Part shown: positions 3,130 through 51,843 of the stretch, one piece after another
How the letters are laid out: every line of letters begins with the position of its first letter
Numbering within the stretch: position 1 is the first letter of the stretch
Virus record (IMG/VR): IMGVR_UViG_3300046170_000505
DNA from: a virus
Reading direction: 5' to 3' (one strand)
DNA length: 64,000 nucleotides
Position numbers and translations under genes: made by a program
The notes under the pieces: generated by a model
Told to the model about the DNA's origin: nothing
Seen by the model: only the letters and a program-made list of their open reading frames with translations
Databases searched by the model: none

Positions 3130-3425
3130 TTAATTGGATTAAAGTTGAAGAAAAAACTCCCGAAGAGGGAAAGAGATTGCTTTACTTCTTTGAAGGCACA
3201 GGAGTATGGACAGGTTTTTATTATGGTAGGGATGAAGGCTATCCTAGTTCAAATAACCATGTATTTGGTTGCGAAGCAGGATTCTTAACAGGAGATGTTA
3301 CTCATTATTGCTATATTGATTACCCCGAAGGTGAAGATGCAGAGTGGAGAGTTGACGCAGATAGAGAATTTTCTGAAGAAACCAAACTTCAAATAAATAA
3401 AATGAAAGAACCTATTGATTGGTAA
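3126..3425 (+). CDS. DUF551-like phage protein
   Basis: N-terminal WIKVEEKTPE and C-terminal VTHY pattern. Confidence 0.6.
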   Translation: MINWIKVEEKTPEEGKRLLYFFEGTGVWTGFYYGRDEGYPSSNNHVFGCEAGFLTGDVTHYCYIDYPEGEDAEWRVDADREFSEETKLQINKMKEPIDW

Positions 3426-21231: not shown

Positions 21232-21516
21232 TCAGTTATGTCCTAATTCGTTTTTATCTAATGTAGACTTATCGCGCTTTAATTGTTTAAAAATTTCTTC
21301 ACGATCTTCTTGGGTTAGTTCTTCGTAGAATGTATCGACCCAATGTTTTCTTGCCAACTTTTGCTTAACAGGGAAATCACGATGCAAAACAAAATTAGAA
21401 AAGAATCTATCCAAATAAGATAAAACTTCTTGCCTCACATCATATCTTGACCCTTCGGTTGGTTTGTTCTTTAAAGGAGTCCACTCTGAGAAATGTTCAT
21501 ATTCGTCTTCTATCAT
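21232..21516 (-). CDS. Hypothetical protein on the opposite strand, preceded by the GTGTA late-type motif
   Basis: 94-aa ORF; GTGTA (21526-21530 on the - strand) lies 9 nt before the ATG. Confidence 0.6.
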   Translation of the reverse strand: MIEDEYEHFSEWTPLKNKPTEGSRYDVRQEVLSYLDRFFSNFVLHRDFPVKQKLARKHWVDTFYEELTQEDREEIFKQLKRDKSTLDKNELGHN

Positions 21517-22977
21517 GCAAATAAGTACACATTGGTATTGACATCGGGGCGCAAATAAATTAATCTATTAATAATGCAAAACAGACAAATAAATAAAGCT
21601 TACCTTCACTATACAGAAATGATGACCATTCTAGGATCACAAAACATAATGCCCAAAGAGGTGTTCTTTAAAATGATTCAAATAATGTTCCAAGATAAAG
21701 ACCAAAATAATTACAATAAAAATTTTGATCAAATAAAATCGTGGCACAAAGCAAAACATAATAATGTAGAAGACTTTAAAACTAAACGACCCCGCCCAAA
21801 TAATAATATAAAAGAAGATTCAGGTGGTGAAAATAAATCCTCCGAAAGCCCACAAAGGCAAATAAACGAAGCGCTAGATAAAATAGTATTCCTTCAAGCC
21901 GAAATAAATAAATACAAGGGGGATGCAGAAATGACCAAATCATTAGAAGGCGCTTTAATTAATCAAAAAAATAAGATCAATAATATTACAAATAATGGTA
22001 AACAAATAAAGGGCTTATTTAATAATCAATATTATATTAATCATGTTGATTCAAAATAATTAAGAATGAAATTTTTATTAATAATTTGTTTATTGTTTAG
22101 TGGTTGTGTTTCATCCAAGATGGAGAGCGATATAATTGGTGGTAAAATTTGTCCCTTTTGTTTTCGCGACAACCCTATTTGGAGAAAAAGTTTTTGCCCC
22201 GATTGTTTTCGTGTTGACATGGGTGCGGATGCAAACTATGATTACGCAATGATTAACAACAAACCAAGGAGATAAATTATGAGCAATATAGCAAAATGTG
22301 CAAGAGCAACCGCAGTAATGAACAAAGTAAAGGGCGGAGATCCATTCAGCTTTACCCGAAGGTTCTTAGGGTATAATGAAGCGACAGAAGGAATAATGGC
22401 ACAACAAAGAGAAGCCGATTTAAAATTACAAAAAATTCTTGCTAGTAAAAAAGCAAAGGGGTTAGCATAATGAACTTAGTAAAACCACTAAATAAAAAAG
22501 TTAGTATGTTTGCAACCAATGATGAGTTGTATGAAAAATTAACTAACAAAGAAATTATGACGATTAAATTGGCAAAGCTTGAAGAGTTTGCAGATGATTT
22601 ATATAGGTCTACCACCAGCGAATATAACGCGAAGTTATTTCCCCCTGAAAATAGTTGGTTTAAAATTAAAGGATTATTAAAAGAATTAAATCAATTAAAT
22701 GATTGAGGCAATAATTATTACGATATTAGCTTCAATCTTATTAATCTTTAGAAAAGAACCTTGACACCACCGAATTTATTTCTTAGTATAGCATTATGGA
22801 AACGATAGATTTAACACCAAATTGGGTTACTGCGGTAAAGATTTACATCGAAGTACTCCAAAACAATAATGCCTCAGAAGAGGGTAAACAAAGTGCTAAG
22901 GAAGAATTACTTTACTTAGCAGAGTATGTTGACAATATGCGTCTTGAAAAAAAACTTGAAGCAATCAAAGAAAGTAG

Positions 22978-23006
22978 TTGACATTTTATATATTTAATTG
23001 TAGTAT
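22978..23006 (+). promoter_or_regulatory. sigma70-type promoter for the structured ncRNA
   Basis: TTGACA-17 nt-TAGTAT followed by sequence with no ORF of 60 aa or more. Confidence 0.75.
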
Positions 23007-23035
23007 GTTGTTTGTTATATTATTAGTATAGTTAG

Positions 23036-23370
23036 TAAATGAGAAGAGGCGACTCATTAAAATAGCCTCAGTATTTTTGTTCTTTAATAGTTTAATTTTT
23101 AATTCTGCAGGCAGATCCTTATTAACCAAAGGGCTCAAACTCTGTCTGTAGAAACACTTTGGAAGGGCTTATAATCCTTCCTGTGGGTGACCGAATAAAC
23201 CTGTGATGAGCGGGTTAAGGTACGCAAATTCCCTGTGGTGGGGTAGCAGAGTCCAATCGGATGAGCTGATGACGAATACCAAGTCTAATTTGTGGTTCGA
23301 AGTAGGAACTCTATGAACTGATGTTCATCCCGAAAAGTTGAGAGTATTCAGTAGTCTCTTCCCACACTAT
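23036..23370 (+). ncRNA. Structured ncRNA of about 330 nt (possibly ROOL-like)
   Basis: ORF-free and richer in GC than its flanks. It has a 5' H-type pseudoknot, several helices with G-U pairs, a long-range TGTGGG/CCCACA pairing, its own promoter and a downstream hairpin. Confidence 0.75.
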
Positions 23371-23390
23371 TTTCCCTTATGTTATGTGTT

Positions 23391-23431
23391 GCCCCCTGTC
23401 TAATTTATTTGTAGTTTTTAGACGGGGGGTT
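23391..23431 (+). terminator. Hairpin downstream of the ncRNA
   Basis: CCCCCTGTCTAA...TTAGACGGGGGG stem; the U-tract is weak. Confidence 0.5.
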
Positions 23432-23591
23432 CACATGGCAAAGATTACCAACACTAAAAATCATAACCCAACATGCACCTTGATATTACAAATTATAGTA
23501 ACCATTATAGTAGCAATCATATTAATCAGCAAAGAATAATTACAAATTATAAATTGTGAAATACTAAATAATAAATAAAGAATTTCTCTCT

Positions 23592-23644
23592 AATCCCCTT
23601 GCAGGACTGCGATCCGTCGCTTATCTCTGTAGGGGGATTTTTTT
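23592..23644 (+). terminator. Rho-independent terminator
   Basis: AATCCCCTTGCAG...CTGTAGGGGGATT stem followed by a T-run. Confidence 0.65.
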
Positions 23645-23665
23645 GTGCCTCGATTTCTGTTTCTG

Positions 23666-23732
23666 TAAGTCGTTGAATATCAAGCACTTGCGCGAGCCCG
23701 ACCCGCATAAAGCGTTGATTGGCAACAACTTA
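23666..23732. repeat. 67-bp double-palindrome element, copy 1
   Basis: TAAGTCGTTGAATATCAAGCACTTG-17 nt-TAAAGCGTTGATTGGCAACAACTTA. Confidence 0.9.
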
Positions 23733-23798
23733 CAACAAAGTGCATTTTAATTAAACTTTTTTCTTTACAAGGTATGCGTATTGGTCTATATTGTATCT

Positions 23799-24185
23799 AT
23801 GACAGAGAGAAATCCAGGAAACAAAAAGTATAAGATTGACCACAAGAAAAAGGTCTTTGTATACAAGAACCTTCACAAAGATTGTTGGTCAGTCAAGCAA
23901 GACGGACTAGTCAAAGCACACACCGATGAGATTAATCTTTGGGACTGTGCATTTCAAGTAAATGCCAGGGGCAGACAAAAAGTTATTGATGAGCAACGCA
24001 AAAATGTTCACGCGGGCATCAATGGTTACATAGATGAACTTGATCTAGATTTACCTAATCCTGTGGAAGTAACTTACAACCCATACAAGTATGATTCTTT
24101 TGTTGACAAGGCAACCGAGTCTCCTATATACTCTATGGATAACGCAAAACTAACACACAACAAAGTAACAGCATATACAACATGA
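23799..24185 (+). CDS. Conserved phage protein (VYKNLH..CWSV...RKNVHA type), leaderless
   Basis: Start corrected to the ATG 6 nt after TTTACA-17-TATATT. Confidence 0.75.
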   Translation: MTERNPGNKKYKIDHKKKVFVYKNLHKDCWSVKQDGLVKAHTDEINLWDCAFQVNARGRQKVIDEQRKNVHAGINGYIDELDLDLPNPVEVTYNPYKYDSFVDKATESPIYSMDNAKLTHNKVTAYTT

Positions 24186-49839: not shown

Positions 49840-51843
49840 ATGCCAAGACAATACACCAAGCGATCTGATTACTGGAATAAGTTTAGTCAAGCCGAACAAA
49901 GCCCTTCTAATTTAGAAGACGTCTTAAAAAACTCTCAAGAAGAAATAATTCCAGCAAGCGCTGGAGAAGCTTACTATACAGAAGCCTCATGCGTAACTAG
50001 AAACGTAGGTCAGGTTGATCAAGAAGGAGCGAGTAGGTCTAGAAGAAACAGGGCTCCTGTAGCCAAAAAGCCAAACTCTTTCGCAAACATAGAAGCATTA
50101 AAACTACCATACGAATATTCAAAGGGTTTTGTGTCGCCAAGGCATTCTATACATATGTGTCAAAAAGCATATGCAAATGTCCCTATATTTCGTAATGCAA
50201 TTGATGTTATGGCAGAGTTTTCCAACTCTGATATTTATCTAGAAGGAGGCTCTGAGAAATCTAAACAATTTATAGAAAAGTGGCTCCATAGAATAGAATC
50301 ATGGAAATTAAAAGATCAATATTTTAGAGAGTATTATAGATCTGGAAATGTTTTTATTTACAAGATAGATGGAAAGTTTACTTCTGAAGACTTGATTAAA
50401 ATGAATCAAATCTATGGCGCGGAGTCTTTTGTCCCAGGAAGAAGGATTCCTATTAAATATGTTTTTCTTAATCCTTATGATTTTGTAGCTGATAGAACTT
50501 TAAATTTTGGAGAAAAAAATGGCGTATATAAAAAACTTTTAAGTGAATACGATATCGAAAGATTAAAAAATCCTCAGACAGAATACGACAAAGAAGTTTT
50601 TGACGCTTTACCCCCTGAAGCAAAAGAAAAAATAAAAGAAGGCGGATACCTTAAAGATGGAATAAAAATATACCTTGATCCTAAAAAACTTGTTTTCTCT
50701 TTTTATAAAAAACAGGATTATGAACCATTTGCTATTCCTTTTGGATTTTCAGTGCTTGACGATATCAACTGGAAAATGGAACTTAAAAAAGTTGATCAGG
50801 CTATTACAAGAACGATTGAGAACGTTATCCTGTTAGTCACAATGGGTAACACTCCAGACAAAGGAGGGGTAAACCCAAATAATTTAAAAGCCATGCAACA
50901 GCTTTTTCAAAACGAAAGCATCGGCAGGGCATTGATAGCTGATTATACAACTAAAGCAGAATTTATTATTCCTGATTTAAATAAAGTTCTTGGCGCCTCT
51001 AAATATCAAATAGTGAATGAAGACATTAAGGAAGGCCTTCAAAACATAATCGTAGGAAAAGAGAATTATTCTAGTACCCAAGTTAAAGCTCAAATTTTTC
51101 TTGAAAGATTAAAAGAAGCTCGCAACGCATTTCTTAATGATGTATTACAACCTCAAATAAAAGAAGTATGCAAAATCATGGGCTTCAGAACTTTTCCTCA
51201 AGCTAAGTTTGTAGAGATTGATATTAAAGATGAAGTTCAATTACAACGCGTCACCTCAAGATTAATAGAAATGGGAATTATAACCCCAGAACAAGGAATG
51301 ACTGCTTTAAAACAGGGAGTTTATCCTGACCCCAAAGATCTCAAAGTTGCACAAGAGCAATTTGTTGAAGATAGAGAAAAAGGATATTACACCCCACTAA
51401 CAGTTGCGCAACCAATATTACCAGATGACGCCCCTGCTCCCGCACAAAAGCCAAAAGTTCCAGGGGAAACTGGTAGGCCAGCTGGAACAAATACTAATAC
51501 CGATAAAATCTTTGCGCAAGACACTCACAGTAGAAAAGATATTCAAAGCGTTATATACAAGATAGAAGATTTAAGAAAATATTCAGAATCTTCTTTAAAA
51601 AAACAATACAACAAGAAAAGATTATCTAAACAGCAAAAAGAAATGCTTGATGATTTAACTCAAAGCGTTGTTATGTCTAAACAAATAGAAAACTGGGAAA
51701 GCACTATAGAAGCATGCATAAAAGACTTTAATAATATAGAAAGTCTTGATGTAATGAATAATGTTTTAGAAGTTGGAGAAAAACATGAACTTGTTTCTTA
51801 TCCCGCCGCTATACTTTATCACAGTAAAAAAATAAATAAATAA
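49840..51843 (+). CDS. Portal protein
   Basis: Follows TerL, 667 aa; AY..VPIFRNAID.MA and Y..GN..IY patterns. Confidence 0.8.
   Translation: MPRQYTKRSDYWNKFSQAEQSPSNLEDVLKNSQEEIIPASAGEAYYTEASCVTRNVGQVDQEGASRSRRNRAPVAKKPNSFANIEALKLPYEYSKGFVSPRHSIHMCQKAYANVPIFRNAIDVMAEFSNSDIYLEGGSEKSKQFIEKWLHRIESWKLKDQYFREYYRSGNVFIYKIDGKFTSEDLIKMNQIYGAESFVPGRRIPIKYVFLNPYDFVADRTLNFGEKNGVYKKLLSEYDIERLKNPQTEYDKEVFDALPPEAKEKIKEGGYLKDGIKIYLDPKKLVFSFYKKQDYEPFAIPFGFSVLDDINWKMELKKVDQAITRTIENVILLVTMGNTPDKGGVNPNNLKAMQQLFQNESIGRALIADYTTKAEFIIPDLNKVLGASKYQIVNEDIKEGLQNIIVGKENYSSTQVKAQIFLERLKEARNAFLNDVLQPQIKEVCKIMGFRTFPQAKFVEIDIKDEVQLQRVTSRLIEMGIITPEQGMTALKQGVYPDPKDLKVAQEQFVEDREKGYYTPLTVAQPILPDDAPAPAQKPKVPGETGRPAGTNTNTDKIFAQDTHSRKDIQSVIYKIEDLRKYSESSLKKQYNKKRLSKQQKEMLDDLTQSVVMSKQIENWESTIEACIKDFNNIESLDVMNNVLEVGEKHELVSYPAAILYHSKKINK

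Follow-up and report, generated by a model that had tools for sequence, protein, structure and literature searches.

A manA RNA of an uncultured marine phage lineage, probably expressed as a self-contained gene behind a pseudoknot and boxA leader

Organization of the locus

We analysed a 64,000-nt stretch of viral DNA, the IMG/VR record IMGVR_UViG_3300046170_000505 (hereafter, the window). A sequence-only reading had placed a promoter-driven structured RNA of about 330 nt with a 5' pseudoknot at positions 23036–23370. The features identified at this locus are listed in Table 1. The segment is free of ORFs, as had been claimed, with only short ORFs, none of them conserved, and every helix that the reading had proposed was found at its place. 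The proposed promoter was also picked up by a promoter scan, and judging from its position, transcription would start at approximately 23013. The description of the segment as the template of a promoter-driven, plus-strand structured RNA with a 5' pseudoknot was upheld, but the proposed end at 23370 was not: the transcription unit most likely runs past this position to the intrinsic terminator.

Table 1. Features of the manA unit and their positions in the window.
Feature	Coordinates	Strand	Basis
Sigma-70-type promoter TTGACA-17-TAGTAT	22978..23006	+	Promoter scan
H-type pseudoknot: stem 1 23038-43/23053-58, stem 2 23046-50/23065-69	23038..23069	+	Covariation in relatives
boxA-like element TGTTCTTTAATAGTTTAA; core GTTCTTTAATA at 23079-89	23078..23095	+	Consensus match
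13-bp hairpin module, lineage-specific, in variable insertion site between boxA and manA	23103..23153	+	Folding
manA RNA, Rfam RF01745, full length	23161..23370	+	Covariance-model match and clade covariation
manA internal pseudoknot, 23205-08 (GAUG) with 23326-29 (CAUC)	23205..23329	+	Covariation
Loop-loop pairing, ACUG 23317-20 with CAGU 23349-52	23317..23352	+	Covariation
13-bp GC-rich hairpin without T-run	23391..23430	+	-22.4 kcal/mol, z -5.7
34-aa ORF, one hydrophobic segment (membrane peptide)	23435..23539	+	Conservation in sublineage
Intrinsic terminator, branched stem and T7 run	23592..23645	+	-26.3 kcal/mol, z -4.8

Identification of the RNA

The core of the flagged stretch is a catalogued manA RNA, and it is a real folded RNA. 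When the whole window was searched against Rfam, manA (RF01745) matched on the plus strand with 81 bits (gathering score 55.2, E = 5e-19), and the match extended over the full length of the model (model positions 1–192 of 192). It was the sole structured-RNA match apart from one tRNA; the nearest tRNA lies ~10 kb from the manA unit. The hairpins at 23161–81, 23198–216 and 23313–28 and the long-range TGTGGG/CCCACA pairing, all noticed from the sequence beforehand, proved to be helices of the manA family model. Most of the model helices were recovered by RNAalifold on 34 clade sequences, with compensatory changes in 21 of the 38 predicted pairs.

The sequence-only reading had likened the layout and motifs of the RNA to the ROOL class and had suggested a minimal variant or a new class. 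Neither ROOL nor GOLLD was matched, whether at the gathering score in the whole window or at E up to 10 in a permissive pass with lax filters over the 1.1 kb between 22700 and 23800. The motifs quoted as ROOL-like are conserved nucleotides of manA. The full-length manA match covers 210 of the 335 nt, and for this part the Rfam search that had been proposed as a check returned a known family, the outcome that had been named as removing the novelty. The other proposed check, covariation among homologs, gave support for the leader pseudoknot as well as for the manA helices.

The part of the segment upstream of manA (23036–23160) had no Rfam match at E up to 10, and the permissive pass added only noise. 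A preQ1-I-type riboswitch was considered for this leader, which combines a stem of 5 bp with an A-rich linker and a second stem that is short; only the shape is similar, and preQ1 was not matched at E up to 10 in 22700–23800.

Relatives of the manA unit

Related loci were gathered from IMG/VR via the neighboring L5-gp82-like gene (23781–24185; Pfam PF25735), which yielded 80 loci. According to a clade HMM, manA was located just upstream of this gene, on the same strand, in 45 of them; all 20 manA copies tested among the 45 scored above the Rfam gathering score, and no manA was found in the loci without a clade-HMM match. Together, IMG/VR and marine metagenomes provided 113 full-length clade manA copies. 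A manA 19-mer was detected in at least 120 marine metagenome contigs, including contigs from Tara Oceans. The 80 listed of these matching stretches were all DNA contigs of at least 1.1 kb, with no short transcript-like contigs among them. Four metagenome contigs with only partial manA-like matches in other phage contexts were excluded from the counts. The 19-mer was also present in partial manA-like matches, without a leader and in GC-richer phage contexts, in L094, L116, L127, L098, and L121; these may be further manA relatives.

The order of the unit is fixed in the relatives: promoter, hairpin or pseudoknot, A-rich linker, boxA-like motif, optional stem-closed module, ACACTTT junction, manA, and terminator. 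A TTGAC-type promoter with a spacer of 16–18 nt and a TA...T -10 box was found upstream of the leader in nearly all cases.

Leader pseudoknot

The 5' leader sits outside the manA model. The proposed pseudoknot, AATGAG/CTCATT crossed with GAGGC/GCCTC, is present, and both of its helices are kept in relatives by compensatory changes. The usual form of stem 1 is TTGAG/CTCAA. The window has ATGAG/CTCAT and L061 has CTGAG/CTCAG; four metagenome contigs have TTAAG/CTTAA, and CAGAG/CTCT was seen in three more. The sequence of stem 1 is conserved beyond the needs of structure alone. In total, the leader hairpin is kept in 81 of the 92 distinct upstream regions.

The loop of the hairpin is 7–10 nt long in 15 distinct IMG/VR leaders (window included) and is partly complementary to the segment just upstream of boxA. 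The stem 2 partners formed in this way in IMG/VR are GGAT/ATCC, AGATT/AATCT, AGCT/AGCT, GGGT/ACCC, GGGC/GCCC, GGGGT/ACCCC, GAGGC/GCCTC, and GGGTT/AACCC; metagenomes provided additional types, e.g., AGCC/GGCT and GAAGTAA/TTACTTC. Altogether, there are 11 sequence types of stem 2, all of them complementary. A column count on the model-fitted alignment gave 58% paired, with a +1 slide also scoring high, and this count understates the pairing, as both MAFFT and the covariance-model alignment place the leaders with a 5-bp stem 2 one column out of register. For this reason, cognate partners were compared with non-cognate ones. With one representative for each of the 11 types, none of 20,000 partner permutations reached the observed score of loop/linker complementarity. 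Such cognate complementarity among varied partners indicates that the H-type pseudoknot is real for this class of leaders. About half of the leaders belong to a second class, with a short 7-nt loop and a hairpin without stem 2.

A covariance model of the leader (R1) was used to search 573 kb of DNA. There was one match per locus, always upstream of manA, and no match in the manA-less relatives, elsewhere in the window, or in Prochlorococcus phage P-SSM2. In L016 (~2540–2600), the stretch between manA and the terminator holds another leader-type hairpin, TTGAG...CTCAA, with an A-rich run after it.

boxA-like element

The core of the boxA-like element, GTTCTTTAATA, is an exact match to GYTCTTTAANA, the gamma-proteobacterial boxA consensus of Baniulyte et al. 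(PMC5725501). The motif is kept in 91 of the 92 distinct upstream regions, a few of them without the hairpin; about half of the leaders contain GATCTTTAACA, with one mismatch to the consensus. Other TGTTCTTTAA sites in the window, at 21465 and 21662, were set aside, being located within ORFs and without a leader.

The arrangement was compared with that of rRNA-operon leaders. The E. coli rrnH leader contains TGCTCTTTAACAATTTA after a hairpin. The same order is seen ahead of the 16S gene of a Cellvibrionales metagenome-assembled genome (MAG), where the rRNA leader has a hairpin and then GTTCTTTAACAA, a typical boxA that does not discriminate between hosts. The manA unit shares with such leaders a consensus boxA core in a promoter-proximal position on an untranslated transcript, as well as a hairpin upstream of boxA; unlike in rRNA leaders, the element ahead of boxA frequently takes the form of an H-type pseudoknot whose linker is A-rich. 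Sites of boxA outside rRNA are known, e.g., that of suhB (PMC5725501). By its similarity to rRNA leaders, the leader of the manA unit could work in the same way, i.e., through the use of Nus factors, Rho resistance and assistance with folding. No paper connecting manA and boxA was found in the searchable literature.

Variable module site

The proposed 13-bp helix (23103–15/23141–53) is present, with a predicted folding energy of -21.2 kcal/mol (z -4.7) on the plus strand compared to -12.5 kcal/mol (z -0.7) for the minus strand of the same stretch; the hairpin is strand-specific. This version of the hairpin had no copy in any fetched locus. Across 91 leaders, the distance between boxA and manA was up to 20 nt in 38 cases, which have nothing at the module site, 21–100 nt in 23 cases with a short insert, and >100 nt in 30 cases with a long insert. 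The related locus L101, with flanks 94–97% identical to those in the window, possesses an unrelated, ~90-nt stem-closed module at this site. Judging from these comparisons, the modules look interchangeable; a role for them in processing is speculation.

Two further observations concern this site. The manA copies of the window and L101 are 86.7% identical, whereas their genomes are otherwise 94–97% identical, and between boxA and manA one module has been exchanged wholesale for another; divergence or recombination seems to be concentrated in the RNA unit. L010 (~3270–3380) has a variant unit in which the manA-like RNA is shortened and scores under the Rfam threshold; the module that separates boxA from this RNA contains a T-arm-like hairpin (GGTTCGATTCC).

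Contacts within manA

Two pairings were identified when 94 distinct manA sequences were searched for column pairs that covary without being nested. The internal pseudoknot (23205–08/23326–29) occurs as four types: GAUG/CAUC, CGUG/CACG, UGUG/CACA, and, in P-SSM2, GGCAU/AUGCC. The ACUG/CAGU loop-loop pairing is replaced by ACUA/UAGU in two lineages, and all four of its pairs have compensatory changes. When both pairings were evaluated in the 34-sequence alignment, 97.8% of the cells paired and 7 of the 8 pairs had compensatory changes; the observed pairing was reached in none of 500 shuffles, and no slid register came close. In their treatment of manA, Weinberg et al. (2010, PMC2864571) marked one element "pseudoknot?", which we assume to be the pairing of 23205–08 with 23326–29. 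A further loop complementarity within manA, GAAUAC/GUAUUC, was rejected, as no covariation was seen on inspection of the alignment.

The covariation would fit contacts within one molecule or between molecules, and the two pairings may be of either kind. Other manA RNAs were recently described to form RNA-only assemblies in vitro, namely decamers and a 60-mer cage held by kissing loops, with kissing loops between molecules holding the manA pentamers together (bioRxiv 10.64898/2026.07.01.735769, unreviewed cryo-EM preprint).

Region downstream of manA

An intrinsic terminator follows manA in 90 of the 93 distinct downstream regions, with the T-run starting a median of 61 nt past manA. Most of the 37 IMG/VR downstream regions examined lack an ORF ahead of the terminator, and the next promoter follows closely, with its -35 box 7–12 nt past the T-run. 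Given the terminator that follows it, manA is not placed here as a 5'-UTR element of a protein gene; this placement is a matter of context, which is outside the Rfam model.

The window is one of four downstream regions with >150 nt ahead of the terminator. In its sublineage, 267 nt precede the terminator, and these include the GC-rich hairpin and the 34-aa ORF. The hairpin is conserved in L101, and its 3' arm holds a G-run located 6–11 nt upstream of the ATG at 23435; in the predicted fold, it would mask the ribosome-binding site of the ORF. L101 differs from the window by 13 substitutions in the ORF, 9 of which are non-synonymous, mostly among I, V and L, yet the reading frame is uninterrupted there, and a 55%-identical peptide is encoded ~220–300 nt downstream of the manA 19-mer in L152. 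The ORF is absent from the other relatives, i.e., it is confined to one sublineage; judging from its conservation there, it is probably a genuine small gene carried by the unit.

The loop of the terminator contains an inner mini-hairpin (23608–23621 in the window; CTGCGAT, 3–4 nt, TCGC), which is also conserved in the otherwise different terminators of L009, L018, L037, and L101. A different element, a conserved, ORF-poor segment of ~190 nt, is located between manA and the terminator in L001 (3509–3710) and L003 (3496–3710). It had no Rfam match at the gathering score and could be a second structured RNA.

Comparison with known manA settings

The described manA members are cyanophage, Photobacterium or marine copies located in 5' UTRs (Weinberg et al. 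2010, PMC2864571), and this setting was repeated for cyanophage S-CREM1. The copy in the window has the same helices, conserved nucleotides and internal pseudoknot; the last is also kept in P-SSM2, with a different sequence. In P-SSM2, manA (181.6 bits) is located between regA and a gene annotated as purL. A TTGACA-17-TATAAT promoter ends ~7 nt ahead of it, there is no leader, and an ORF begins 16 nt past it. As manA directly precedes an ORF there and has no leader, the manA family as a whole may have cis roles. The context of the window clade differs from this setting in every respect: unlike the known copies, it has a leader with a pseudoknot and boxA, a site for optional modules, and a terminator of its own.

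Interpretation and alternatives

We consider it likely, with a probability of about 0.72, that the unit, composed of a promoter, a leader with a pseudoknot and boxA, a module, manA, and a terminator, is a phage gene complete in itself that encodes the known manA RNA, and that its product acts in trans. The family membership, the order of parts, the covariation of the leader helices and of the two manA pairings, and the strict co-occurrence of leader and manA follow from the comparison of related sequences. In the proposed mechanism, the sigma-70 promoter, which is close to consensus, would drive transcription of the leader, hairpin module, manA fold, and terminator, with the 34-aa ORF included in this sublineage only. 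By analogy with rRNA operons, boxA would load host NusB/NusE (S10) and other Nus factors onto RNA polymerase, which would permit Rho-resistant synthesis of the untranslated RNA and help with its co-transcriptional folding. Once released, the manA RNA would exert its effect in trans rather than switch a downstream gene, and it would do so as a stable particle that probably associates with itself, a behavior reported in vitro for other members of the family. In the window itself, manA may also have an effect in cis on the 34-aa ORF, since the small ORF shares the unit. A more far-reaching version, which is tentative and on balance doubtful, is that this widespread lineage makes manA like an rRNA, with Nus recruitment giving abundant, properly folded manA early in infection and the ACUG/CAGU and GAUG/CAUC contacts assembling it into cage-like particles with a role in infected cells, the modules serving as processing handles or surface decorations.

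An alternative is that manA senses a signal and controls the next gene as a cis-regulatory element or riboswitch, in the window via the hairpin over the ribosome-binding site of the 34-aa ORF. The Rfam type of manA is Cis-reg, in agreement with the 5'-UTR placement described by Weinberg et al. (2010, PMC2864571), with the ORF 16 nt past manA in P-SSM2, and with the hairpin that covers the G-run ahead of the ATG at 23435. For this lineage, we nevertheless regard it as unlikely. The terminator is found in 90 of the 93 regions, and in most of the 37 IMG/VR regions it is strong, is not preceded by an ORF, and is followed by a gene with its own promoter. Neither the length nor the content of the segment separating manA from the terminator is constant, i.e., there is no conserved expression platform, and the small ORF that could be controlled is limited to one sublineage. 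Quite unlikely, in our judgment, is an explanation in which the leader is a nut-like site serving the whole early region, with antitermination, perhaps through a phage N-like protein, leading to read-through of the terminator and manA being a passenger. Like lambda nut, the leader combines a boxA with a small structured element beside an early phage promoter, and the conservation of the stem 1 sequence exceeds what its structure demands. In lambda nut, however, boxA is followed by boxB, whereas here the hairpin precedes boxA, as in rRNA leaders; across 573 kb of related DNA, manA accompanied the leader in every case, and the leader is tied to one RNA gene rather than an operon; downstream genes are served by promoters of their own; and no N-like protein has been identified. 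That the RNA is a minimal ROOL variant or represents a new class is scarcely conceivable after the full-length manA match with covariation, which refutes it, and with no ROOL or GOLLD match at any threshold tried. ROOL and GOLLD RNAs are several-fold longer, and neither their sequence nor their structure matches the manA unit. What can be said in favor of the comparison is an analogy: like manA, which is also reported to be multimeric, both are structured RNAs associated with phages and reported to form assemblies of RNA alone (preprint), and the original intuition survives only in this form.

The reading of manA as a self-contained gene matters for the standing of the family, which has been an orphan riboswitch candidate since 2010 and for which in vitro RNA-only cages are described in an unreviewed 2026 preprint. 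A unit layout that combines a strong promoter with an rRNA-style leader and a dedicated terminator, and usually has no gene to regulate, is independent genomic evidence that manA is a product itself, at least in this lineage. The manA family was known; what is unusual is manA as its own gene behind a pseudoknot and an rRNA-style boxA leader, an architecture that was not found in the searchable literature. The present analysis adds the covariation of the leader pseudoknot with its two leader classes, the swappable module site, the sublineage ORF, and the two covarying tertiary pairings.

Phage lineage and host

The source of the window is an uncultured marine phage lineage with genomes of ~200 kb and without a cultured relative. 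Five related IMG/VR contigs were searched whole, and each contained one manA; three of these contigs were rated 100% complete (194–214 kb), and the other two were rated 76% and 79% complete (~103–105 kb). No match was found by blastn of 22700–23700 against 50,697 phage records or by an exact 38-mer search of IMG/VR. A 667-aa protein (49840–51843) had no match in cultured phages, and the terminase had remote matches only, with at most 28% identity.

A weak hint of a gamma-proteobacterial host is given by the exact boxA match, the sigma-70 promoters, and a contig as long as a phage genome, with the manA 19-mer, that was binned in the Cellvibrionales MAG (L205, JAYQMT010000004.1, 210,818 bases). 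The 19-mer was found in three MAGs of unrelated phyla, and binning artefacts are likely, as the two MAGs other than the Cellvibrionales one belong to unrelated phyla.

An ATG was observed only ~6–8 nt after promoter -10 boxes at 22761–22798 in the window and just past the manA terminator in L002, L005, and L017; with such short distances, many early genes of this phage group look leaderless.
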